Assembly (NCBI GenBank): GCA_030699125.1
Contig: JAUYKM010000009.1
Coordinates: 6,358 to 70,357, forward strand
DNA length: 64,000 nt
Direction of reading: 5' to 3'
DNA from: Candidatus Daviesbacteria bacterium
GTDB lineage: Bacteria; Patescibacteriota; Microgenomatia; Daviesbacterales; UBA10151
Position numbers and translations under genes: made by a program. Below the pieces are notes generated by a model. The model was not told the origin of the DNA. It searched no databases and saw only the letters and a list, made by a program, of their open reading frames with translations. Positions 4,192 to 46,008 of the stretch are shown piece by piece; positions within the stretch are counted from its first letter, which is position 1, and the number at the start of each line of letters is the position of its first letter.

Positions 4192-5562
4192 TTAATCTAT
4201 ATGCTGAATTTTTTCAAGTAAATAATCTCTCTTATTCTTTGTAGAATCTTCTAAGACTTCCTCAAAAAGTTTTTGGAGGATCTCTCCCACTTTTGGGCCG
4301 GGCTTAATGTTTAAAACTTTCATCACATCATGGCCATCCACTTTTAAATCAGCAATGGAAAATGGTTTTTTCAAAACTTGTTTAATTTTTTCTTTAAATT
4401 TTTCCATCCTCCATGATGTTTCTCTCTGTGTTCCTCCACCTAATCTATCACCAACTCGAAGAGCCATCATATCTTCGATATTTTCCAACCTCACATTTTT
4501 TATAAAACGCCTGATGGCAGAATCTGTTTGATCTTCATTAACAGAAAACATATGCCACCTGATTAATCTATAGAGCTTTTCAGTTTGTTTTTTAGATAGA
4601 TTAAATCTTTTGGCAATCTTCCTAGCTATATTTGCGCCCACCACATCATGTTGATAGAATGTGACATTGCCATCCTCTTGAGTGGAGACTGTATCAGGTT
4701 TACCAACATCATGGAGCAAGGCGGCAAATTTGGTAAGAGGATCATCTGATGGAGCATATTTGAGAGTAAGTAGGGAGTGTTCGCCAATATCATAGACTCT
4801 GTCATGTTTTGGTCCCTCCTGTTTAAGACCAAAACACCCCTCAAGTTCCGGCAAAATAATTTGCAGTATCCCCGCCTCCCTAAGTTTAACTATACCTATG
4901 TATGAACTGCTAGATGCAAGAATCTTGAAAAGTTCATCCCTGACTCTTTCATTGGCGATTTCTTTTAAAAGATGGGCATTTTTTGTGATAGCTGCAAAAG
5001 TTTTTTTCTCTATATCAAAACCCAATTCTGTGGCAAATCGAATGGCACGAATAAGACGTAGGGCATCTTCTTGGAACCTTTTCTGTGGATCACCCACAGC
5101 TCTAATGATTTTGTCTTTAATATCATCTTGACCATGGAATGGATCAGTTAATTGGATCCCCCGATTAAATCGGGGGATGACAGAGGCGGCAATGGCATTA
5201 ATAGTAAAATCCCTGCGAGCTAAATCTTCCTCAATATTATCTGTCCAGGAAAGCTTATCCGGATGACGGTGATCTTTATATATTCCCTCTTTTCTCATGG
5301 TGGTGATTTCAAAAATTCCATCACCACTATCAAACCCAACTGTACCAAACTTATTATCATAAAATCCCTCAGGAATCACTTTTAAAATCTCCTCCGGTTT
5401 TGCATCAGTGGTAAAATCCCAGTCCTTGACCTGCTTTTTCGTTAAAAGATCTCGGACTGCCCCTCCCACTATGTAAATTTGAAAGTTGGCTTTTTGAAAT
5501 TTATCTAAAATATTTTTTACTCTGGAAGGTAGTGTATAATCGTTCATGATTTCATCATTCAC
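4192..5562 (-). CDS. cca: CCA tRNA nucleotidyltransferase (polymerase beta-type head plus HD domain)
   Basis: IVGGAVRDLLTKK..DWDFTT nucleotidyltransferase head, RRDFTINA motif and a downstream HD-domain LHDVGKP. Confidence 0.85.
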   Translation of the reverse strand: MNDEIMNDYTLPSRVKNILDKFQKANFQIYIVGGAVRDLLTKKQVKDWDFTTDAKPEEILKVIPEGFYDNKFGTVGFDSGDGIFEITTMRKEGIYKDHRHPDKLSWTDNIEEDLARRDFTINAIAASVIPRFNRGIQLTDPFHGQDDIKDKIIRAVGDPQKRFQEDALRLIRAIRFATELGFDIEKKTFAAITKNAHLLKEIANERVRDELFKILASSSSYIGIVKLREAGILQIILPELEGCFGLKQEGPKHDRVYDIGEHSLLTLKYAPSDDPLTKFAALLHDVGKPDTVSTQEDGNVTFYQHDVVGANIARKIAKRFNLSKKQTEKLYRLIRWHMFSVNEDQTDSAIRRFIKNVRLENIEDMMALRVGDRLGGGTQRETSWRMEKFKEKIKQVLKKPFSIADLKVDGHDVMKVLNIKPGPKVGEILQKLFEEVLEDSTKNKRDYLLEKIQHID

Positions 5563-5617
5563 TTCTTGTAACGCGTTGCGTTATAATCGTTCATGTTGTA
5601 ATTGTATCTTTAAGTGT

Positions 5618-7222
5618 ATGAAATGGAAAGTATTACCCAAAAAGTCCGATGATTTAGTGGAGCAGTTACTGGCAAACAGGGGAATTAAAACTACTCAAGA
5701 AAAAGAGCAATTTTTTCATCCCAAAATTTCAGATTACGAGAAGGATATTGATATTGCCGGAATAAAAAAGGCACAGGAAAGAATAAAAAAAGCAATAAAA
5801 AATAATGAACTAATTATTGTTTATGGAGATTATGATGTAGATGGAATATGCGGCTGCGCTTGTCTTTATAAAGCACTAACTTCAATTGGAGCAAAAGTTT
5901 TGCCTTATATTCCACATAGAGAAAAAGAAGGATATGGATTATCAAAAATAGGATTGGAGTCGGCTAAAAATTCTGGCGCCCGGTTAATAATAACTGTTGA
6001 TAATGGCATAGTTGCCAATCCTCAAGCAGACTATGCAAAAATTTTAGGCCTGGATTTAATTATTACTGATCACCATATTCCGGCAAAAATTAAACCGGAC
6101 GCTTATGAAATAATTCATTCTACCAAGATGTGTGGAGCCGCTGTTGGTTGGTGTCTTATCCGAGGATTAATAAAAAAGGATTTGGCAACAGAATTGTTGC
6201 AATTTGTTTGCCTTGCCACCATCTGTGATGTGATGCTTCTTTTGGAAGTTAATAGAGCATATGTTTCGGAAGGTTTGAAAATTTTAAACCGGACAACTAA
6301 TTTAGGATTATTATCTTTAATCAATGAATCAGGATTAAGACTTGGGAATATTGGTTCTTATGAGATAGGTCACGTTTTAGGGCCAAGATTGAATGCTATG
6401 GGAAGATTGGAAAATGCCATGGATTCATTAAGACTTCTTTGCACCAAAGATCCTCAAAGGGCCAGAAATTTGGCAAGACTTTTGTGTAAGACTAATACCA
6501 GTCGCCAAAAAATGACCGAAGAAGCAGTTGAAGAAGCACATGTTTTAGTGAATAAAGGAATCAGTGTACAGGTATTACATTCTAAAAAATGGTCCATGGG
6601 AATTGTGGGACTGATTGCTGGAAGAATTGCCGAAAGCTACTCTCGTCCTACCATAGCAATTTCAGTGGGAGAAACTGTTGCTAAGGGATCAGCCAGATCT
6701 GTTAATGGAGTAAATATAGTTGAGTTTATCAGAAATTTTTCCGATATTTTAATTGATGTGGGAGGGCATCCGCAAGCTGCTGGTTTTTCGCTGGAGTCTA
6801 AAAATGTGACAATCTTTAAAAGAAGAGTAGAAGAATATATTTTGGAATTACCTGAAGAAGGAGAAAAAGTTTTAGAAATAGATGCAGAAGTTGAAACTAA
6901 ACAAATTAGTAAGGGTTTAATTGAACAGATATCTAAGTTTGAACCATTTGGTGTTAAAAATCCTAGGCCCATTTTTGCAACTTATAAAATGCAAATTTCA
7001 GATATTAGAACAGTAGGATTGGGGAAACATCTAAAGTTTAAAGCGAATAATATAGACGCTATTGCCTTTGGCATGGGGGAGATGGAATCGCTACTGGCTA
7101 ATGGGCAGCAAATTCACCCTGAGCGAAGTCGAAGGGTAGATTTGGCTTATACACCAGAAATTGATAGTTACAATGATTTTGAAAAACTACAACTAAAAGT
7201 AAAGGATATTCGCATTAGTTAA
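5618..7222 (+). CDS. recJ: Single-stranded-DNA-specific exonuclease RecJ (DHH/DHHA1)
   Basis: DHH motifs YGDYDVDG and ITDHH, plus a DHHA1 GGH motif. The track ORF starts at 5546 and overlaps cca, so I prefer the internal start MKWKVLPKK at 5618. Confidence 0.8.
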   Translation: MKWKVLPKKSDDLVEQLLANRGIKTTQEKEQFFHPKISDYEKDIDIAGIKKAQERIKKAIKNNELIIVYGDYDVDGICGCACLYKALTSIGAKVLPYIPHREKEGYGLSKIGLESAKNSGARLIITVDNGIVANPQADYAKILGLDLIITDHHIPAKIKPDAYEIIHSTKMCGAAVGWCLIRGLIKKDLATELLQFVCLATICDVMLLLEVNRAYVSEGLKILNRTTNLGLLSLINESGLRLGNIGSYEIGHVLGPRLNAMGRLENAMDSLRLLCTKDPQRARNLARLLCKTNTSRQKMTEEAVEEAHVLVNKGISVQVLHSKKWSMGIVGLIAGRIAESYSRPTIAISVGETVAKGSARSVNGVNIVEFIRNFSDILIDVGGHPQAAGFSLESKNVTIFKRRVEEYILELPEEGEKVLEIDAEVETKQISKGLIEQISKFEPFGVKNPRPIFATYKMQISDIRTVGLGKHLKFKANNIDAIAFGMGEMESLLANGQQIHPERSRRVDLAYTPEIDSYNDFEKLQLKVKDIRIS

Positions 7223-8581: not shown

Positions 8582-8778
8582 ATTTATCTCCTCCTTTCTT
8601 CAACTAAAAACCCCCGCTTGATATAAGTCGGAGGTCGATATTAAGTTGATTTTTTACCAAAACCAACCTCCGCTTAAGCGAAGGTAAAGAAGAAGTTAAA
8701 ATTTCTTCTTTGGTTTTGCATGAAGAATAATTTATCAGCAAAATCAAGCCTTGTCAAGAGTAAAGTTTTACTGCTATT

Positions 8779-16551: not shown

Positions 16552-17409
16552 ATGTCAATTACTGCCCAAGATATTCATAAATTAGAAGAGAAGGCCGTTT
16601 TAATCCGGGAGGATATCATCAGGATGCTTCTGGAAGCTGGATCAGGTCATAGCGCCGGACCTTTAGGCATGGCTGATGTTTTCACTGCTTTATATTTTAA
16701 TATCTTAAAACATGACTCGGCCAAGCCGGATTGGGAGGAGCGGGATATGCTGGTATTATCCAACGGCCATATTTGTCCGGTTTGGTATGCCACCCTGGCT
16801 CACGCCGGTTATTTCCCTATTACGGAACTAAAAACATTGAGAAAGCTGGGTACTAGGCTGCAAGGACATCCTCACAGAGGGGCTTTACCTGGAGTAGAAA
16901 CAACTTCAGGTCCTCTCGGCAGTGGATTATCTCAAGCTTGCGGAATGGCTCTGGGACTGAGGATGGATAACTCCAGAAGATGGGTTTATTGTTTAATGTC
17001 TGACGGAGAGCAGGATGCCGGAAATACCTGGGAAGCAGTTTTATTTGCAGGAAAATATAAACTAAATAATTTAACTGCCATTATGGATAGAAATAATATC
17101 CAAATAGATGGGTTTACAGAGGATATTATGCCTTTGGAACCGATTAAAGAAAAATATGAGGCCTTTGGCTGGCATGTTCTGGAAATAGACGGACACAATA
17201 TGGAGGCTATTATTAATGCCTGCAATGAAGCCAAAGCTATTGTGGAAAAGCCGGTTTTAATCATTGCCCACACCATCCCAGGTAAAGGAGTTGATTTTAT
17301 GGAATATAAATTTGAATGGCATGGTAAACCACCGAATGCAGAAGAGGCCAAAAAAGCTTTATCAGAGTTAAGAACCCTGCAAGGTAAGATTAGGAGCGAG
17401 CATGAGTGA
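16552..17409 (+). CDS. Transketolase, N-terminal (TPP-binding) subunit
   Basis: GSGHSAGPLGMADV, GHPHRG and MSDGEQDAGNTWEA motifs. Split-transketolase architecture. Confidence 0.85.
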   Translation: MSITAQDIHKLEEKAVLIREDIIRMLLEAGSGHSAGPLGMADVFTALYFNILKHDSAKPDWEERDMLVLSNGHICPVWYATLAHAGYFPITELKTLRKLGTRLQGHPHRGALPGVETTSGPLGSGLSQACGMALGLRMDNSRRWVYCLMSDGEQDAGNTWEAVLFAGKYKLNNLTAIMDRNNIQIDGFTEDIMPLEPIKEKYEAFGWHVLEIDGHNMEAIINACNEAKAIVEKPVLIIAHTIPGKGVDFMEYKFEWHGKPPNAEEAKKALSELRTLQGKIRSEHE

Positions 17410-19230: not shown

Positions 19231-19258
19231 TTGACAAATTCCCCCAGGGGGATATAAT
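19231..19258 (+). promoter_or_regulatory. Sigma70 promoter (TTGACA-16-TATAAT) with an embedded GC palindrome TCCCCCAGGGGGA, a CsoR-type operator candidate
   Basis: Perfect -35 and -10 hexamers. The 13-bp palindrome fills the spacer. ATG at 19270 gives a near-leaderless transcript. Near-identical architecture at 20732..20760. Confidence 0.55.
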
Positions 19259-19269
19259 CCCTTCAGATT

Positions 19270-20022
19270 ATGTCGTTAGTCTTAACTGAGTTTGAACACT
19301 CTCGAGTTATTCTTCCTGTTATTCATCCTCAATCAGTGGATCATGCGGCTGAAAATATAGAAGTTGCACAAAAATCTGGCAGTGATGGTATATTTTTATT
19401 TTGTGGGAATGGTAGTACGGAGCAGTCACTGGAAGATTTTTTGGCCGTATATGCAAAGATCCACAGGCAATATCCAGGTTATTTTATAGGTGTTAATTTA
19501 CTTGATTGGCCAGTAAGATGGAACGATCAAAATCCAGCGTCAAGTTTGCCTGCTTTGAGTGATTTTTTCAGTAGGCTACTCTATTTAAGGGTACCAGCCG
19601 TTTTCGTTGAAAATTCTAAATTTATAGAAAATAGTATAGAACAACCCTATATAGAGGTGATAAATCAAGCTCGTCAATACTCAGGCGTCCTGTTGTTTGG
19701 AGGAGTTGCTTTCCATGACCCAGGAACTCATGGATATAATCTTGCTTCAGTTAATGCAAAACATTCAATGGATGTAGTAATGACAGGTGGAGTTGAGAGA
19801 GGAACTCCGCCGACTCTGAGTAAGATGTATTCTCTAAGCGAACCGCTTGGTGATCATCCACTGGGGATATCAAGCGGCATATCACCTCTTAATATCTTAG
19901 ATTATCCAATGGCTAAATTTTTTTCGGCTAATACTCATATAGTAACTCCCGGTACAGAAGATCTTAATCCACACTTGCTGGGTACGATGGTGGGATTAGT
20001 TCGAAAATATCTGGATCGTTAA
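19270..20022 (+). CDS. Hypothetical TIM-barrel-like protein, weak BtpA/SgcQ-family resemblance
   Basis: Only loose pattern similarity (ILPVIH, GSDGIF, YFIGVNLL). Sits under the operator-containing promoter. Confidence 0.3.
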   Translation: MSLVLTEFEHSRVILPVIHPQSVDHAAENIEVAQKSGSDGIFLFCGNGSTEQSLEDFLAVYAKIHRQYPGYFIGVNLLDWPVRWNDQNPASSLPALSDFFSRLLYLRVPAVFVENSKFIENSIEQPYIEVINQARQYSGVLLFGGVAFHDPGTHGYNLASVNAKHSMDVVMTGGVERGTPPTLSKMYSLSEPLGDHPLGISSGISPLNILDYPMAKFFSANTHIVTPGTEDLNPHLLGTMVGLVRKYLDR

Positions 20023-20039
20023 TTTAACCAAGCTACGCC

Positions 20040-20678
20040 TTATTTTTTACTTGGAAAAAACGCTACAATAAGTCTTAGTAAAACCACAAGCGCCGTAAAA
20101 CCAAAGGTAATTTGTCCAACTATTCTTTTGATAACTAAAACTCCATTTTGTGATTCAACTAAGTAAAAATGTAAAACTGCCAAAATTAATGCCAAATATG
20201 CTGTTGATTGGATAATCTTCCAAATCTTTGGACTTAAAGAATTCAAAGCCAGCTTGTTAGAGGTTAAAGTAACTGCCAAAAGTATTACTAAAGAAGCCAG
20301 TCCAGCCAGTAAGCCAAAATATTTGGGACTGGTTGGATCAAATAATTTGGCTAAGTCATAATTAACATAGAAAATATAAATTAGTATGGTATGAGCTAGG
20401 GCAATAAAAAAGCTTAAGATCCCCCAAAATTTGCGGTTGGCTTTTAAAGCATTTAGGGCAGGAAAAAATCTGCTGGCAGGCCCAATAAGTAATGTGAGAG
20501 ACAAAAGAGCAATCGCCAAAAGTCCAGTGGTTTTCACCATTTCCTTTGGATTGAACTGGCCAAAGTTATAAAATTGGAAATACAGCCAGAAAAGAAGAAA
20601 CGGTACCCCGAAATCAATTAATCTTTGAGTCATATTTTTATCTTCAGAGTAATTATAAGGATGAGCTTTATTTTTCAT
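20040..20678 (-). CDS. Ferric-reductase-like (MsrQ/YedZ-type) heme-binding membrane protein
   Basis: Six hydrophobic helices with conserved His in TM (LAHTILIY, LAVLHFYLV). The track ORF extends to 20738, where it would overlap the csoR promoter, so the internal start at 20678 is preferred. Confidence 0.45.
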   Translation of the reverse strand: MKNKAHPYNYSEDKNMTQRLIDFGVPFLLFWLYFQFYNFGQFNPKEMVKTTGLLAIALLSLTLLIGPASRFFPALNALKANRKFWGILSFFIALAHTILIYIFYVNYDLAKLFDPTSPKYFGLLAGLASLVILLAVTLTSNKLALNSLSPKIWKIIQSTAYLALILAVLHFYLVESQNGVLVIKRIVGQITFGFTALVVLLRLIVAFFPSKK

Positions 20679-20731
20679 TTTTATAACTAATCTCAAGGTA
20701 ACATATATGGGCGAATTAATCAAAAACATGC

Positions 20732-20760
20732 TTGACATATCCCCTATGGGGGGATATAAT
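20732..20760 (+). promoter_or_regulatory. Sigma70 promoter (TTGACA-17-TATAAT) with an embedded palindrome ATATCCCCTATGGGGGGATAT, a CsoR operator candidate, leaderless csoR
   Basis: Perfect hexamers. The GC palindrome sits in the spacer. csoR ATG at 20770 is about 9 nt after the -10. Confidence 0.6.
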
Positions 20761-20769
20761 GTATTGGTT

Positions 20770-21039
20770 ATGTATAGACCAAAAAATACACAAGAACGAA
20801 TTACTCATCGGTTACAGATTGCCCAGGGACATCTTAAAAAGGTTCTTAATATGGTGGAAAACGGGGAATATTGTATTGATGTAATCCATCAATCCCAGGC
20901 AGTCCAGGCAGCTTTGAAGGAGGCAGATTCTTTGGTTTTGGAAAACCACCTGAAAGGTTGTGTGGTTGACCATATTAAAAAAGGTGAATCAGATGCGTCT
21001 ATTGCAGAAATCATGAATGTTTTTAAGAAAAACAAATAA
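20770..21039 (+). CDS. csoR: CsoR/RcnR-family metal-sensing transcriptional repressor
   Basis: RLQIAQGHLKKVLNMVENGEYCIDVIHQSQAVQAALKEA...HLKGCV matches the DUF156 CsoR helix bundle, with the Cys-His-Cys ligand positions present. Confidence 0.75.
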   Translation: MYRPKNTQERITHRLQIAQGHLKKVLNMVENGEYCIDVIHQSQAVQAALKEADSLVLENHLKGCVVDHIKKGESDASIAEIMNVFKKNK

Positions 21040-21042
21040 TTT

Positions 21043-21543
21043 ATGAGTGACAAAAAAATTATTATTGGCTTTGTGGTCTTAACCCTTTTAATACTGGGGG
21101 GTGGAGTTTATGTGTTAAGCGCCATCTCTACCAGTCCTACTCAAGTTACTTCCTCACAAAACGCCAAAGTATCTTTAGATGAAAAGACTTATGATTGGGG
21201 TGAAATTCCCTATAGTGGTCCGGATGCCACCAAAACATTTATTATTAAAAATACCGGCACTGATGTATTGAAACTTACCAATGTTAAAACTTCCTGTGCC
21301 TGTACTAATGCCAGAGTCACTATTGATGGCGAGGTGAGTCCCAGCTTTGATATGCATACCACCTCTTCCTGGGTAGGTGAAGTTCCTCCAGGTAAAGAGG
21401 CGCAACTGACTGTTATTTTTGACCAGGATTTTCATGGACCCACCGGAGTGGGAGCGGTAGAGCGTTTGATATCAATTGAGACTAATGATGCAGCCAACCC
21501 AAAATTGGAATTTTTATTGAAAGGAACGGTAGTTAAACAATGA
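21043..21543 (+). CDS. DUF1573-like membrane-anchored protein with a CxC motif
   Basis: N-terminal TM and a beta-rich domain with TSCACTNA. Confidence 0.5.
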   Translation: MSDKKIIIGFVVLTLLILGGGVYVLSAISTSPTQVTSSQNAKVSLDEKTYDWGEIPYSGPDATKTFIIKNTGTDVLKLTNVKTSCACTNARVTIDGEVSPSFDMHTTSSWVGEVPPGKEAQLTVIFDQDFHGPTGVGAVERLISIETNDAANPKLEFLLKGTVVKQ

Positions 21544-22472
21544 AGACAAAGAAGATAAAAGGGATTCTATCTAAAGCCGTGCCTTTGTGGATGGTGTTAC
21601 TGGTAGTTTTAAATTCCACCCTGGTGATGGGTGTAGCTCAATATTATCTGATTAAACAGCAACTTCAGAAAGATATCAAAGAACTTTCTAAGAGTCTAGA
21701 TCCTGCTCAAATGGCGGCTGCATTAAAGCAGGAAGTTTTACCCCAGAAAGGTTATATGACTTCTTTAAAATGGAAGGATTTGGGTAAACAATTGGTGGAG
21801 GCCGGGGCAATTGACAAACAAAAGTATGAACAAATCTTTACCTATCAATCAGATGGGGCAGATCATATGAAATATATGGATGGATCTTGGGATGAGAATA
21901 TCATAATCAACGAGGCAAATGGCCGTTTTTTAGTTAATACTTTTTGGGCCTTGGGGTTGGTTAACAAATCCAAGGTGCTGGATGAGGGACCAATGAGGCA
22001 ACAGGGTATGGATACTGCCAATTTAGCCTCCACTGCCGGCTGGACTTTAGGCTCTAAGGGAGCCATGGAGCTTTACTCCTCAGTCTCCATTATTCCCTTG
22101 ACTGATGAACAGCAGGATTTAGTTAAAAGGATTGCCGAAAACGTTTTCCGTCCTTGTTGCGGCAATTCCACTTACTTTCCCGATTGCAATCACGGCATGG
22201 CAGCTTTAGGTTATATTGAACTGGCAGTTTCAAGCGAGCTTTCGGAAAATCAAATTTATAAAGATCTTTTAGCATTTAATTCCTTTTGGTTTCCGCAAAA
22301 TTATGTGGATATGGCTGTTTATTTTGACAAGCAAGGGACTAAATGGAAAGATGTTGATCCAAAACTGGCTTTGTCCTCTGCTTATTCATCATCTCAAGGC
22401 GCGCAAAGAATAAAACAATCCGTTCAATCTGTTCCCGGGGTTGGTGGAAGCACAGGAGGTTGTGGAACATAA
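21540..22472 (+). CDS. Membrane-anchored Cys-rich hypothetical protein
   Basis: N-terminal TM. CCGNSTYFPDCNHG cluster and a C-terminal GGSTGGCGT tail. Overlapping start and stop with its neighbours. Confidence 0.45.
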   Translation: MKTKKIKGILSKAVPLWMVLLVVLNSTLVMGVAQYYLIKQQLQKDIKELSKSLDPAQMAAALKQEVLPQKGYMTSLKWKDLGKQLVEAGAIDKQKYEQIFTYQSDGADHMKYMDGSWDENIIINEANGRFLVNTFWALGLVNKSKVLDEGPMRQQGMDTANLASTAGWTLGSKGAMELYSSVSIIPLTDEQQDLVKRIAENVFRPCCGNSTYFPDCNHGMAALGYIELAVSSELSENQIYKDLLAFNSFWFPQNYVDMAVYFDKQGTKWKDVDPKLALSSAYSSSQGAQRIKQSVQSVPGVGGSTGGCGT

Positions 22473-23309
22473 ATGGAAAATATCTTTTTTCAAACCTCGC
22501 TGATTGCCGCATTTGTGGCAGGGATGGTAGCCTTATTTGCCCCCTGTTGTATTACCTTTTTATTACCCGCGTATCTTGGCAGCGTTTTTAAGGAAAAAGA
22601 AAAAGTGATTTTAATGACTTTAGTTTTCGGTGCGGGAATTTTTGTCACACTTATGCCGGCAGTTTTAGGAGTGGCTTTGATCTCTAAAGCGCTTTTCCGC
22701 TACCATGATTTTATTTATATTCTGGGTGGGGTAGTTATGATTGGAGTTGCCGTAACCACTTTTTTGGGTATAAAGCTGCCAATGCCAAATCTGCCCGGGA
22801 CAAATATCGGGAGCAGGACAGATGTTTTGTCAATTTTTATATTAGGGATTTTTTCCGGTATCACCAGCGCCTGTTGCGCTCCGGTTTTGATCGGGATTTT
22901 AACTTTGACTTTTCTCTCGCCCAGTTTTTTTGGGGCCATTTTGATAGGAGGAATGTATGTTTTAGGTATGGTAATACCGCTTCTGATTATCTCCATTTTC
23001 CTGTCCGGAAAGATGTCAAAAATGGCTCTTTTAAGGAAACCGTTTGCTGATTTAAATTTTTTTGGAAAAACTTATGTAGTGGTAGTAAGTAATCTTGTGG
23101 CCTCAATAGTATTTTTAGTCACAGGTTTGGCGGCCCTGGGGTTGACAGTTTCGGGCAGGCTTTCTGCTGAAAATATGGATATATTCACCAAAACAATTAC
23201 AAACACATTAAATAATGTAAATGGTATTTTTGGCACAAATCCTCTGCTTAATGTTTTGTTCCTGATTACAGTAATCGCTCTTATTTATTGGGCTGCCAAA
23301 AAGCTGTAA
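22473..23309 (+). CDS. DsbD/CcdA-like polytopic thiol-disulfide membrane protein
   Basis: Two intramembrane Cys pairs (FAPCCITF and SACCAPV) across about 8 TM segments. Confidence 0.45.
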   Translation: MENIFFQTSLIAAFVAGMVALFAPCCITFLLPAYLGSVFKEKEKVILMTLVFGAGIFVTLMPAVLGVALISKALFRYHDFIYILGGVVMIGVAVTTFLGIKLPMPNLPGTNIGSRTDVLSIFILGIFSGITSACCAPVLIGILTLTFLSPSFFGAILIGGMYVLGMVIPLLIISIFLSGKMSKMALLRKPFADLNFFGKTYVVVVSNLVASIVFLVTGLAALGLTVSGRLSAENMDIFTKTITNTLNNVNGIFGTNPLLNVLFLITVIALIYWAAKKL

Positions 23310-23333
23310 GATTAAGTTAAGGGGGTGATAAAA

Positions 23334-23480
23334 ATGATGGGTTATGGAAACTGGGGATATGGCTATAGTGGAATGATGGGTGCAGGTTTTGGGATTTTAG
23401 CAACAGTTTTTTGGCTGGTGATTTTAATTGACCTGATTCTTTTGGGCGTTTGGCTTTGGAAGCAGATTCAGAAGAAATAA
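23334..23480 (+). CDS. 48-aa Gly/Trp/Tyr-rich single-TM mini-protein
   Basis: SD GGGGGTGA lies 6 nt upstream. MMGYGNWGYGYSGMMGAGFG followed by one TM. Not in the ORF track. Confidence 0.3.
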   Translation: MMGYGNWGYGYSGMMGAGFGILATVFWLVILIDLILLGVWLWKQIQKK

Positions 23481-23490
23481 TTAAGGTTTT

Positions 23491-23850
23491 ATGAGTATAG
23501 ATAAAGTTTTAGTTATTATTTTTGGGCTTATCGGAGTAATTTTTACCTATTGGTTCTTTTTGATGAAAAAAGAAAAGGAGGTGGAAGCAGTGGGTGAAGT
23601 GGATATTAAAGTAAGCGGTGGATATTCGCCGGAGGTAATCTCCGTACCTTTGGGTAAAACTACCAGGATAAATTTTTTAAGGACTGATCCAACTGACTGT
23701 TTATCAGAGGTGGTTTTGGGTGATTTTAAAATTAAAAGGCAGTTGCCTTTAAATGAGAAAGTAACAGTAGAAATTACCCCGCAAAAGGCGGGGGCGTTTG
23801 GATATTCATGCGCTATGAACATGTATCATGGCAAGATAATTGTTAAATAA
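23491..23850 (+). CDS. Membrane-anchored cupredoxin-like small protein
   Basis: N-terminal TM. C-terminal motif [16 protein letters not shown], which also recurs at the C-terminus of the 26162..27181 ORF. Confidence 0.5.
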
Positions 23851-23867
23851 GCAGAGCTTGCGATGCT

Positions 23868-26165
23868 TTGCATCTAAATATGGCAGAAATAAAGAAAACA
23901 TTTCCCATAAAGGGTATGTACTGTGCATCATGTGTACGGGTTTTGGAGAAATCCTTAAGTAGAGTTGAGGGTATTTCTAATTGTGTAGTAAATCTGACAA
24001 CAGAGACAGCAAGTGTTACATATGATCCAAAAAAAGTGACAGATAATGATTTGGTATCTGCTGTGGCGAATGTTGGCTACAAAGCAGGGTTGGAGAGTGA
24101 GTTAAAAACAGAAGATCAGCAAAAAATAGAGAAGGAAAAAGAACTAAAAGATTTACGAAATAAAGTTATTATCAGTTTATTTTTGGGGGCATTAATTCTT
24201 TGGGGAAGCTTTCCGGGTCTTATGAATATTGCCCCACTTTTTTTAATAAACTCATGGGTACAACTGCTTTTAGCGATACCGGTTCAATTTTGGGCAGGCT
24301 GGGAATTTTACAGGGCTACAATTCCTGCCCTGCGACACAGAACTGCCAATATGGACACACTGGTGGCCATAGGTACTACCGTTGCTTTTTCCTATTCCGC
24401 TGTCGTGACTATTTTTCCTCAACTGGTGGAAAGTATTGGAGTAAAACCAGAGCCCTACTTTGATGTTTCCACTATTATTATCGGATTAATTTTACTAGGA
24501 AGATATTTTGAAGCCAAAGCTAAAGCAGGTACTTCAGAGGCTATTAAAAAGTTAATAGGTCTGCAGGCTAAAACTGCCAGGGTGGTAAGGAATGGCTCGG
24601 AAGTAGATATCCCGATAGATCAGGTAGTGATTGGAGATACTATCAGGGTCAGGCCAGGTGAAAAAATTTCGGTTGACGGAGAAATTTTAGAGGGTCAGTC
24701 ATCTATTGATGAGTCCATGGTAACAGGAGAAAGTATCCCGGTTGATAAGGTTAAAGGCGATTTGGTAATTGGTGCCACTATCAACAAAACAGGAACCTTT
24801 TTATATAAAGCCACCAAAGTGGGAGCAGATACAATGCTTTCACAAATTATTAAATTGGTACAAGAGGCTCAAGCCAGCAAAGCCCCGATACAAAGATTGG
24901 CTGATTTAATTTCTTCATATTTTGTACCGGTAGTTTTAATTTTGGCCATTGCTACATTTGTAGTTTGGTATGTAATTGGTCCTGCCCCTTCATTTTTGTA
25001 TGGTTTGCTTAATATGGTGGCTGTTTTAATAATTGCCTGTCCTTGTGCCATGGGCTTGGCAACTCCAACAGCTATTATGGTGGGTACAGGAATTGGGGCG
25101 AACAAAGGAATATTGATTAAGGATGCTCAAAGTTTGGAAACTGCTCATAAAATAAACACTGTTATTTTTGATAAAACAGGGACATTAACTAAGGGAAAGC
25201 CGGAGGTGACCGACGTTGTTCCATTCGTCATTGCGAGGAGGAACGCGACGAAGCAATCTTCCAAATCAAGATTGCCACGCGAACTAAAGTTCGCTCGCAA
25301 TGATGTTTTGGTATTAGCAGCATCTTTGGAAAAGGGATCAGAACATTCTTTAGCAGAGGCAATTGTTAATAAAGCCGAGCAAGAAGCACTTAACTTCAGC
25401 AAAGTCGAAGCATTTAAAGCCATTCCAGGGCATGGGGTAGAAGGTATTGTTGATGGGAGAAAAGTGGTTCTGGGAAATAGAAAGTTGCTGGAAAAGAATG
25501 ATGTTGACTTTACTCCGATTATTCGAATAATTGAACAACTGGAAAATGAAGGCAAGACAGTGATGATGTTGACCGTGGATGGGAAATTAGCAGGCCTTAT
25601 TGCTGTGGCTGATACTATTAAAGAGACTGCCAAAGAAGGAGTGGAAGCGCTCTATAAAAAAGGGATAGAGGTAGTTATGATTACCGGAGACAACCAGAGA
25701 ACTGCCAATGCTATTGCTAAAAAGCTGGGTATAAAAAGAGTTTTGGCAGAAGTTTTGCCTGATCAAAAAGAGGCGGAAGTAAAAAAGATTCAGACAGAAG
25801 GAAAGAAAGTAGCTATGGTGGGAGATGGAATAAATGATGCTCCGGCTTTGGCTGCTGCAGATGTTGGGATTGCCATGGGTACTGGAACTGATGTGGCCAT
25901 AGAGTCGGCAGGAATTACCTTGATAAATAAAGATTTAACATCTGTGGTATCAGCAATAGAGCTTTCCAAAAAAACCATGAGAACAATAAAACTAAACCTT
26001 TTTTGGGCTTTTGGTTATAATATTATATTAATACCGGTTGCTATGGGAGCGCTCTATCCATTTTTCCATATACTTTTAAATCCAATCTTTGCTTCAGTTG
26101 CTATGGCATCCAGTTCTATATCTGTAGTTTCAAATTCACTGCTTTTAAAAAGGGTTAAACTATGA
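23868..26165 (+). CDS. copA: Copper-translocating P1B-type ATPase
   Basis: N-terminal [16 protein letters not shown] motif [18 protein letters not shown] and [10 protein letters not shown]. Carries a 78-bp in-frame GC-rich palindromic insertion at 25227-25304. Confidence 0.9.
25227..25304 (+). repeat. Two inverted copies of palindromic mini-element family A inserted in frame in copA
   Basis: GTCATTGCGAGGAGGAACGCGACGAAGCAATC and, inverted, GATTGCCACGCGAACTAAAGTTCGCTCGCAATGAT. Matches 55996-56028 and 56173-56198. Confidence 0.7.
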
Positions 26166-27181
26166 TTAATTTGTGGCTCATATTTATAACCGGTTTAACT
26201 GTTGGGGGCTTAACTTGTCTGGCAGTGCAGGGAGGACTTTTGGCCTCAATTATTGCGGCCAGGGAAGAAGATGATATCGAACGCGGTAACAGGCGTAAAC
26301 ACACACTCTGGGCAACAATTGCCTTTCTAGTAACTAAGTTGATTGTTTATACTTTTTTAGGTTTTATCCTGGGGGCTTTTGGAGGGGCATTAAATATTTC
26401 TCCCAAAGTCCAGATTGCCATGCAATTTTTAGCAGGACTATATATGGCTTTCATTGCGCTAGATTTGTTAAAAGTCCACCCTATCTTTAGATACGTAGTC
26501 ATCCAGCCCCCCAGATTTTTAACCAGGATAGTAAGGAATCAATCCAGGAGTAAGGATCTTTTTGCCCCGGCCGCTTTAGGTGCTATGACAATTTTTATTC
26601 CTTGTGGTACAACTTTGGCAATGGAGGCTTTGGCAATCTCATCCGGTAATGCAATTTTGGGTGCAGCAGTTATGTTTTTCTTTGTTTTGGGCACTATACC
26701 TGTATTTTTTGGGGTGGGTTTTTTAACCACAATATTGGGTGATAATTTTCAGGGCAGATTTTTAAAAATTGCAGGGCTGACTGTACTTTATTTAGGTGTT
26801 ATCTCAGCAAATGGCGCTTTAGTTGCAGCAGGATCACCTGTTAGCTTGCCATCTATAACAATTGACCTAAGTGGCAATGGTAGATATTCAGCGCAGAACC
26901 AGATTGATATTTCCGTTGCACAAAACCCCCAAATTACTATTACATCTTCCGGCTACAGCCCAAACTATATCAGAGTAAGGCAAGGTAAAACAGTCAACTT
27001 AACGCTTAAAAGTATCAATGCTTTCAGCTGTGCTTTAGCTTTTAGGATTCCCTCTTTGGGCATCAGTAAGAATCTGCAGCCAAATGATGTGCAGCAAATC
27101 AGCTTTGTTCCCACTCAACCAGGCCAAATCCCATTTAGCTGCTCTATGGGGATGTATCGGGGGGTGATTGAGGTAATATGA
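26162..27181 (+). CDS. Polytopic membrane protein fused to a C-terminal cupredoxin-like domain
   Basis: About 6 TM with a conserved Cys in TM1 ([11 protein letters not shown]). The C-terminal soluble domain ends in [12 protein letters not shown]. Confidence 0.45.
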
Positions 27182-27396
27182 GGAAGAGAAAATTCAAAAT
27201 TACGGATATGCACTGTAGCTCTTGTGCTTTAACCATAGATTTGGATTTGGAAGATTTGGAGGGAGTGAAATTTGCCAGGACCAGTTATGCAAAAGGAGAA
27301 ACTGAAATAGAATTTGATTCTGAAAAAATTACTGATCAAGTTATTTCAGAAACTATCAAAAAATCAGGCTATTCTGCAATTCCTCTTGAAACTTAA
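27178..27396 (+). CDS. copZ: Heavy-metal-associated (HMA) copper chaperone
   Basis: 72 aa with a ferredoxin-like HMA fold. Metal-binding loop MHCSSC. Confidence 0.75.
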   Translation: MRKRKFKITDMHCSSCALTIDLDLEDLEGVKFARTSYAKGETEIEFDSEKITDQVISETIKKSGYSAIPLET

Positions 27397-45288: not shown

Positions 45289-46008
45289 ATGTTTACCAAT
45301 CAGAAAGTTTTAACTTTTGTTTTTATTACTCTCGTTTTTGGTTCTGCCATTTATTTTACCTTTCTAAAATTCAGATATGATGTTATTAGTCCTCCTGCTA
45401 CACCCAGCCCCACTCCCGAAATAAAATTTGTCTTAACTCCCTCTCCCACTGCTTCCTCCCAACCTCAAACTCAAAGGGCTGGTCCACAAGTATCCAGCTT
45501 ACCCCAAGCTTCCCAGCTACCCCTGGCAAATAAAAAATATTTAGGTCAATTCCCTGGCAATTTATCCGAGGAAGAGCTTAAAAATAAAGCTGTAACTCTG
45601 GTCACCACTAAAGGCAATATAGTCATGGAAATTTTTCCTGAGGTCCCTTTGACAGCTTCCAATTTTCTAATTCTGGCCTCCAATGGTTTTTATGATAATT
45701 TAACTTTTCACAGAGTGGAACCAGGAGTTTTAATACAGGGTGGAGATCCTAAAGGAGACGGAACTGGAGACGCGGGGTATACCTTCAAAGATGAACCTGT
45801 CACTCGGGAATATACCAAGGGAATTGTAGCTATGGCCAATAGGGGTCCGGATACCAACTCCACTCAGTTTTTTATTGTGATTTCAGATAACATAGAAATT
45901 TCTAAAAACTATACAATATTTGGAACTGTGCTTTTGGGTATGGATGTGGTGGAAAGGATAACTCCGGGGGATATAATCAAAACCGCGGTGGTCCAACCCC
46001 TTAACTGA
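45289..46008 (+). CDS. Membrane-anchored cyclophilin-type peptidyl-prolyl cis-trans isomerase
   Basis: N-terminal TM and a Pro/Ser/Thr linker, then FHRVEPGVLIQGGDP and MANRGPDTNSTQFFI. Confidence 0.8.
   Translation: MFTNQKVLTFVFITLVFGSAIYFTFLKFRYDVISPPATPSPTPEIKFVLTPSPTASSQPQTQRAGPQVSSLPQASQLPLANKKYLGQFPGNLSEEELKNKAVTLVTTKGNIVMEIFPEVPLTASNFLILASNGFYDNLTFHRVEPGVLIQGGDPKGDGTGDAGYTFKDEPVTREYTKGIVAMANRGPDTNSTQFFIVISDNIEISKNYTIFGTVLLGMDVVERITPGDIIKTAVVQPLN

Follow-up and report, generated by a model that had tools for sequence, protein, structure and literature searches.

Does the copper-sensing repressor CsoR govern one promoter or two at the locus described here? The window under study is a 64-kb stretch of DNA (38% G+C) from a Candidatus Daviesbacteria genome, obtained by metagenome assembly from an uncultured groundwater bacterium. 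It contains two promoters that match TTGACA/TATAAT at 12/12 positions (termed perfect promoters below) and carry a GC-rich palindrome in their spacers. Promoter P2 precedes csoR, the first gene of a copper (cop) operon, and promoter P1 precedes open reading frame (ORF) 19270, which is predicted to encode a TIM-barrel protein. An earlier note on this DNA had proposed both promoters as a candidate CsoR regulon. Our analysis separates them. The combined explanation that we consider probable is that P2 serves as a copper-derepressible promoter of the cop operon and that P1 is a copied csoR-type promoter whose response to CsoR has been weakened or lost. The elements concerned are as follows.

19231..19236, plus strand: P1 -35 hexamer, TTGACA
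16 nt between TTGACA 19231-19236 and TATAAT 19253-19258: P1 spacer, AATTCCCCCAGGGGGA
19240..19252: perfect 13-nt palindrome in the P1 spacer, TCCCCCAGGGGGA, a CsoR-type core contracted by 2 bp
19253..19258, plus strand: P1 -10 hexamer, TATAAT, followed by 11 nt and the ATG at 19270
20732..20737, plus strand: P2 -35 hexamer, TTGACA
17 nt between TTGACA 20732-20737 and TATAAT 20755-20760: P2 spacer, TATCCCCTATGGGGGGA
20737..20757: predicted CsoR operator of P2, a 21-bp pseudo-palindrome, ATATCCCCTATGGGGGGATAT, with its 15-nt core at 20740-20754
20755..20760, plus strand: P2 -10 hexamer, TATAAT, followed by 9 nt and the ATG at 20770

The predicted operator of P2 occupies the whole 17-nt spacer together with the last base of the -35 hexamer and the first three bases of the -10 hexamer. 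The promoter coordinates given in the earlier note were confirmed, and both promoters stand far above chance expectation, with three perfect promoters observed in the window against 0.11 expected from base composition. Its rendering of P2 had the correct coordinates but inserted a spurious 'ta' before TATAAT. The motif search that it called for, run as TCCCC-N1-6-GGGGA over the 64 kb, returned two occurrences, at P1 and P2 only, and such a palindrome is present in about five per million random 17-mers. The description of the two palindromes as near-identical was overstated. Their cores measure 13 nt at P1 and 15 nt at P2, and the longest exact stretch that they have in common is GGGGGATATAAT, the right half.

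P2 and the copper operon

The window was compared with 80 related csoR loci (L-numbers) taken from species-representative genomes. With a csoR-proximal site defined as a T-C3-6...G3-8-A element no more than 170 nt 5' of csoR, 76 sites were collected, from 75 of the 80 related loci and from the window itself. A 15-nt core flanked by ATA and TAT is present in 74 of these 76 sites. In four further loci csoR stands at the operon end, and the 15-nt site is found instead 5' of cupredoxin/copA genes; L064 has a natural csoR site with a 16-nt frame. The P2 core, TCCCCTATGGGGGGA, is 15 nt long and has the outer T-to-A distance of 15 nt that characterizes the type-2 CsoR operator frame. A position weight matrix (PWM) was trained on 73 csoR-proximal sites, which scored between 19.9 and 37.8, and P2 scored 33.9. 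Only 76 of the 850,677 positions of related DNA reached a score of 15 or more, and the motif is therefore specific to cop operons in this DNA. The same count disposes of the possibility, raised in the earlier note against its own proposal, that the palindrome would occur at many promoters regardless of function.

The protein encoded behind P2 also has the features of a copper sensor. It matches PF02583 with 80.6 bits (cut-off 22.8) over residues 8-87, and its closest solved structures (4m1p, 2hh7 and 3aai) are all CsoR. Residues C35, H60, C64, Y34 and E80 are invariant across 24 relatives, and they align to the YC, NH, C and E of M. tuberculosis CsoR (2hh7), where we take the ligands to be Cys36, His61 and Cys65 and the second shell to be Tyr35 and Glu81. 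The x-C-H-C ligand set and the second-shell Tyr/Glu pair that distinguish the Cu(I)-sensing CsoR subgroup are thus both present. So is the genetic linkage typical of this subgroup, as copA and copZ lie in the csoR operon. Among the 80 related loci, copA is linked in 75 and a DsbD-cupredoxin protein in 61.

It is highly probable, on these grounds, that P2 is a genuine CsoR operator-promoter that autoregulates the csoR-to-copZ operon. The earlier note had proposed the same, and the Pfam match with its ligand residues, the operon content and the retention of the site in 75/80 related loci all agree with it. Copper-free apo-CsoR would bind the pseudo-palindrome of P2, and RNA polymerase would be excluded because the operator fills the spacer and overlaps the -10 hexamer. 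By analogy with the family, Cu(I) bound at C35/H60/C64 would release CsoR from P2, and the derepressed promoter, a very strong one of the consensus sigma-70 type, would then make the csoR-to-copZ transcript. The mRNA is predicted to start at the AUG, or no more than about 3 nt from it, and would be leaderless.

Characterized CsoR operators provide a further measure of P2. The Streptomyces CsoR consensus is the 21-nt ATATACCCCTNAGGGGTATAT, and a TAC-X9-GTA dyad is common to the S. lividans, S. aureus, Listeria and B. subtilis sites (PMC3902906). Family members differ in their sites (type 1 versus type 2), and the type-2 sites have a G/C spacing described as 'typically 11 bp' (PMC3902906). Binding by S. 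lividans CsoR is abolished when a half-site stands alone or when dyad bases are swapped (PMC3902906). Like the type-2 operators of S. lividans, B. subtilis, S. aureus and Listeria, P2 is a 21-bp AT-flanked pseudo-palindrome with two C/G tracts and an identical outer T-to-A distance of 15 nt; it overlaps the promoter of an autoregulated csoR-copA-copZ unit, and its repressor has the x-C-H-C Cu(I) ligand set. Unlike them, P2 has the dyad TCC/GGA rather than TAC/GTA, so that the second dyad base differs and the G/C stretch therefore extends over 13 bp rather than 11 bp. It also differs in exactly filling the spacer of a 12/12 consensus promoter. The repressor departs from the type-2 systems in helix alpha-1, which was judged against the RLXR DNA-binding motif (R54/R57 in S. 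lividans). The Daviesbacteria protein reads RLQI (R14-L15-Q16-I17), and across the 24 relatives the first Arg is invariant and the position of the second is an invariant Ile. The second Arg is also absent from M. tuberculosis CsoR (RLKT), and Geobacillus CsoR has RLKR. One may speculate that the RLQI motif goes together with the changed operator dyad.

A second point of comparison is the csoR-cueA divergon of Bradyrhizobium liaoningense, which has a CsoR box, TATACCCCTACCGGGTATA, in the same frame and a csoR mRNA whose experimentally mapped start is the A of the ATG (PMC5057107). In both systems the CsoR box overlaps the -10 hexamer, and the csoR start, leaderless in Bradyrhizobium, is predicted to be leaderless here. 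In Bradyrhizobium one box serves two overlapping divergent promoters, whereas the box described here lies within the spacer, and no -10 hexamer evidently shared with the divergent msrQ-like gene is seen. A divergent msrQ promoter that uses the P2 operator was considered and ruled out, the minus-strand hexamers being unconvincing.

These comparisons provide an operator consensus for the poorly studied bacteria of the candidate phyla radiation (CPR), (T)ATATCCCC-N5-GGGGATAT(A), which extends from Daviesbacteria through Saccharibacteria-labelled genomes. Daviesbacteria belong to this radiation (Microgenomates), and public data annotate the proteins of the window under the name Candidatus Daviesbacteria. 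The 15-bp anchor spacing of CsoR operators holds here as it does in Actinobacteria, Firmicutes and Proteobacteria, despite different dyad bases. As an element P2 is of an ordinary type, of which a CPR lineage now provides an example.

The operon itself consists of nine tightly packed plus-strand genes (20770-27396) of which csoR is the first. These genes and the divergent neighbor are listed below.

20770..21039, plus strand: csoR (89 aa), PF02583, with Cu(I) ligands C35/H60/C64 and second-shell Y34/E80
21043-21543, plus strand: DUF1573 protein
21540-22472, plus strand: orf310
22473-23309, plus strand: 278-aa membrane protein
23325-23480, plus strand: 51-aa membrane peptide
23491-23850, plus strand: cupredoxin-like protein
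23868..26165, plus strand: copA, P1B-type Cu ATPase with an N-terminal HMA domain; likely start ATG 23880
26162-27181, plus strand: DsbD_2 and cupredoxin membrane protein
27178-27396, plus strand: copZ-like HMA chaperone, the operon end
20040..20678, minus strand: MsrQ/ferric-reductase-like membrane protein; start 20678 or 20633

The MsrQ-like gene is divergent from csoR and convergent with the TIM-barrel gene. Fourteen of the 80 related loci have a gene of this kind 5' of csoR, and in most of these it is carried by the opposite strand. Its product has a conserved His/Tyr-rich N-terminal stretch (AHPYNYSED in the window, AHPYHHSSEG in ORF 39-674 of L082), which favors the upstream start at 20678. 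In L082 the -35 hexamers of the MsrQ-like gene and csoR stand back to back.

Origin and possible CsoR response of P1

P1 clearly shares the design of csoR promoters. A comparison with 916 kb of DNA gave the csoR promoter of L026 as the closest match, with 29 of 31 positions identical and one gap. Nine perfect promoters were found in 852 kb of related DNA; eight of them are csoR promoters, and the ninth also has a palindrome. The commonest core among the relatives is TCCCCC-ATA-GGGGGA (nine loci), and removal of its two central bases gives TCCCCC-A-GGGGGA, the core of P1. One deletion would therefore explain both the contraction of P1 and its retained symmetry. One substitution combined with one 1-bp deletion provides another route to P1 from an L026-like promoter. 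In L017 a wrbA-like gene is directly followed by the csoR promoter, just as a wrbA-like gene precedes P1 in the window, and this shared order is compatible with descent of P1 from a csoR promoter. Judged from its sequence, P1 is very probably a paralogous copy of a csoR-type promoter-operator cassette.

Several other candidates were tried and rejected. P1 is not a recent within-window duplicate of P2, as only 12 nt are common to the two and the flanks are unrelated, nor is it the terminator of the wrbA-like gene, as its loop would measure 1-3 nt and there is no T-run. A scan of metagenome contigs for the 13-nt core in a perfect promoter yielded two matches and nothing comparable to P1: the match in L082 is really a 15-nt-frame csoR promoter, and that in L081 lies 5' of a histidine kinase gene in an unrelated high-GC organism. 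Of the further palindromes, those at L019 5643 and at window position 45966 (GGGGGATATAATC) fall within coding sequence, and that at window position 16865 reaches a PWM score of 5.9 only.

The core of P1 is 13 nt long and so falls 2 bp short of the conserved 15-nt frame. The C/G tracts, the dyad symmetry and a perfect right half-site are all present, but the left half-site is displaced from the register by 2 bp, and the T...A distance of 13 nt takes P1 further from the type-2 operators than P2. Whichever 15-nt register is used, P1 scores no higher than -1.1 on the PWM, and this is no more than background, where 58 positions in 850 kb reach 0 or above. P1 is best read, from these features of its sequence, as a captured or duplicated csoR-type promoter whose response to CsoR is weakened or lost, because its T/A anchor positions lie 2 bp closer together; continued copper/CsoR control has perhaps one chance in three. 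Some observations weigh against this reading. P1 combines a perfect promoter with a 13-nt palindrome free of mismatches, its G/C stretch, flanked by AT-rich DNA, measures 11 bp, the figure quoted as typical of type-2 sites (PMC3902906), and the 16-nt frame of L064 indicates that a 1-bp change of frame has been tolerated at least once. The earlier view that the TIM-barrel gene shares its control with the cop operon through P1 is not established, given a core of 13 nt against 15 nt in 74/76 sites, a background PWM score and an association of P1 with this gene that is found in this genome only.

If P1 were a fully functional CsoR operator, the BtpA-like TIM-barrel gene would belong to the copper regulon and be co-induced with the cop operon, as the earlier note had it. 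The design of P1 is that of P2 and of the csoR promoters of 16 relatives, with perfect -35 and -10 hexamers, a palindrome of C/G tracts in the spacer and the same right half (GGGGGATATAAT); operators are nearly always present in the perfect promoters of these genomes, and both the 16-nt-frame site of L064 and the 11-bp G/C stretch of the generic type-2 description can be cited in its favor. The 15-nt core, however, is common to 74/76 sites and to the characterized operators of Actinobacteria, Firmicutes and Proteobacteria, the PWM places P1 at background level, half-sites or dyad swaps abolish binding in S. lividans (PMC3902906), and no other locus ties either the TIM-barrel gene family or a 13-nt core to csoR. 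Full function is therefore conceivable yet doubtful. It would be rather unlikely that CsoR tolerates the change from TCCCC-N5-GGGGA to TCCCC-N3-GGGGA and that P1 is a live copper switch captured by a horizontally acquired orphan gene; if true, this would be the first non-cop CsoR target in CPR, and it would represent regulon growth by the copying of a promoter-operator-leaderless-start cassette. P1 is a natural test case for the strictness of spacing recognition by CsoR. A single 2-bp central deletion might, on the contrary, have destroyed repression and left a very strong constitutive leaderless promoter to the acquired TIM-barrel gene. Loss of two bases from the core found in nine loci gives exactly the P1 core, with symmetry kept without selection, and both the background PWM score and the failure of S. 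lividans CsoR to bind half-sites (PMC3902906) are consistent with such a loss. This account requires an ancestral spacer of 18 nt, whereas every operator-in-spacer promoter has 17 nt, and it leaves an unrepressed 12/12 promoter, which would be unusual when eight of the nine in relatives are CsoR sites and the ninth has a palindrome. We regard it as a serious possibility that stays short of even odds.

A different regulator might also use P1, for example a second CsoR/RcnR-family paralogue that is encoded elsewhere in the genome and prefers a shorter spacing. Two csoR-like genes occur on one contig in some related genomes (L066, L070), and members of the CsoR family vary in site geometry (type 1 versus type 2). 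Against this, neither a second PF02583 gene nor a further 13-nt-core site was found in the 64-kb window, and P1 and P2 have identical right halves; we consider such a regulator improbable. Finally, both palindromes could be chance features of AT-rich promoters and not operators at all. At least two matches to the loose pattern did appear somewhere in 8 of 100 shuffles of the window, but the two real ones occupy the spacers of two of its only three perfect promoters (0.11 expected), the probability for a random spacer is about 5e-6, and P2 is conserved in 75 related loci. The comparative data refute this explanation, and its probability is negligible.

The TIM-barrel gene behind P1

The gene downstream of P1 is the following.

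19270..20022, plus strand: BtpA/SgcQ-like TIM-barrel gene (250 aa), lineage-specific

No possible start codon of the ORF lies farther upstream than the one assigned, and the N-terminus is aligned with the N-termini of the homologues. The protein has no direct Pfam match, and a word-indexed protein search returned only the protein itself, but an exhaustive search returned 814 relatives, the best of them at 38% identity. PF03437 (BtpA/SgcQ) was matched by 38 of the 40 homologues scanned, and the family profile of ORF 19270 retrieves PF03437 proteins at E ~1e-97. An AlphaFold2 model built with 72 homologues is a (beta/alpha)8 barrel with a predicted local distance difference test (pLDDT) score of 91; the single-sequence model (pLDDT 40) was discarded. 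The earlier label 'TIM-barrel-like' is well supported by the model and by the family matches. The predicted barrel resembles those of BtpA/SgcQ (PF03437) and CutC, and the protein differs from the BtpA/SgcQ family in falling below a Pfam match itself and in being at most 38% identical to any known sequence.

The best solved matches of the model are TrpA, CutC and ribulose-phosphate epimerase, with TM-scores of about 0.5-0.68 (Foldseek) and of 0.63-0.67 for CutC. Membership in the CutC copper-homeostasis family was rejected, the PDB-profile match having E = 0.022 and covering the C-terminal phosphate-binding part only. Because TrpA and ribulose-phosphate epimerase match equally well, the resemblance to CutC is generic and at the level of the fold.

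The ORF 19270 gene is absent from all 80 related loci, where tktC, the msrQ-like gene and csoR are often adjacent. The wrbA-like gene and ORF 19270 therefore look like an insertion. No CsoR-like site was found at the loci of the closest homologues of ORF 19270 (L083, L084). No terminator-like site was found between ORF 19270 and csoR, and transcription from P1 might therefore continue towards csoR, antisense across the msrQ-like gene. Several BtpA-like homologues (P0323, P0326, P0328, P0343, P0355 and P0359) also contain a fused low-molecular-weight phosphatase/ArsC-type domain (PF01451), which may hint at a function for this uncharacterized family.

Promoter layouts and predicted leaderless starts

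The related loci present the CsoR operator in two interchangeable promoter layouts. In class A, which comprises 17 loci including the window, TTGACA is followed by 2 nt, the 15-nt core and then the -10 hexamer, and in 15 of the 17 the ATG stands 6-9 nt past the -10 hexamer, as expected of a leaderless mRNA. The 45 loci of class B have a -10 hexamer (TAnnAT) that shares bases with the left arm, and there the core comes next; the ATG is often 1-5 nt 3' of the core, which puts the G-tract at the position of a Shine-Dalgarno (SD) motif. Thirteen sites fall outside both definitions. Classes A and B are mixed among close relatives, which indicates that the layout turns over quickly while the operator stays.

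Class B loci display some further peculiarities. The right operator G-tract reads GGAGGG in L002, L011 and L018, and in L002 and L018 a single nt separates it from the ATG, so that these bases may act as operator arm and ribosome-binding site at once. Eight loci (L009, L010, L011, L012, L015, L018, L024 and L027) have a half-site-like T(T/C)CCC(C)TAT(T/C)T in the -35/-10 spacer, about 40-20 nt 5' of the full operator, which may be a relic of a spacer-type operator or an auxiliary half-site. Elsewhere among the related loci, L007, L030 and L037 have insertions of 116-146 nt between the operator and the csoR start, and short tandem repeats (TTTCTAA) occur between operator and csoR in L011.

At P1 and P2 the gap between the -10 hexamer and the ATG is 11 nt for ORF 19270 and 9 nt for csoR, with 5' ends predicted from this geometry; the longer gap at P1 would leave a leader of about 3-5 nt. 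No SD motif was found before ATG 19270 or ATG 20770, as the earlier note had observed. Its view that both transcripts are leaderless or nearly so is supported by the geometry, but this design appears to be common to the whole genome rather than a mark of CsoR control. Only about 10 of 53 window genes have an SD-like motif before the first start codon, and 17 of 54 are preceded by a -10-like hexamer whose end lies 5-12 nt from the start, most often at 6 nt (binomial P = 1.5e-4). Strong SD motifs are also present, for example at window positions 8590 and 7990 on the minus strand. The GeneMarkS-2 'group C' comprises genomes with frequent leaderless transcription, mainly Actinobacteria and Deinococcus-Thermus (PMC6028130). 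As in group C, a Pribnow-like box peaks about 6 nt before start codons, and SD motifs are few at the first genes of operons; unlike group C, the signature is here that of a Daviesbacteria genome and covers 64 kb only. These counts point to leaderless mRNAs for roughly a third of the genes in this Daviesbacterium genome, and leaderless initiation on a genome-wide scale matters for gene calling in CPR genomes.

The operator-in-spacer arrangement is also found with another palindrome. In L011, a related Daviesbacterium, a perfect promoter at 5318-5346 has a 17-nt spacer with a different palindrome, ATCCTATAG-CTATAGGAT, and an ATG 8 nt past the -10 hexamer; the ORF behind it (5355-5888) encodes a ROS/MucR-type regulator (PF05443). 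This is an operator-in-spacer and leaderless-start cassette used by another repressor family. The third perfect promoter of the window, TTGACA-18-TATAAT at 8391-8362 on the minus strand, has the direct repeat AACTGCC twice in its spacer. An Rfam scan of the window detected two tRNAs and nothing else, with no match in the region of this promoter. A 5-codon ORF begins 11 nt past its -10 hexamer, followed by two hairpins with T-runs (~8270-8190) and small ORFs, and the element may be a regulated leader or a small RNA.

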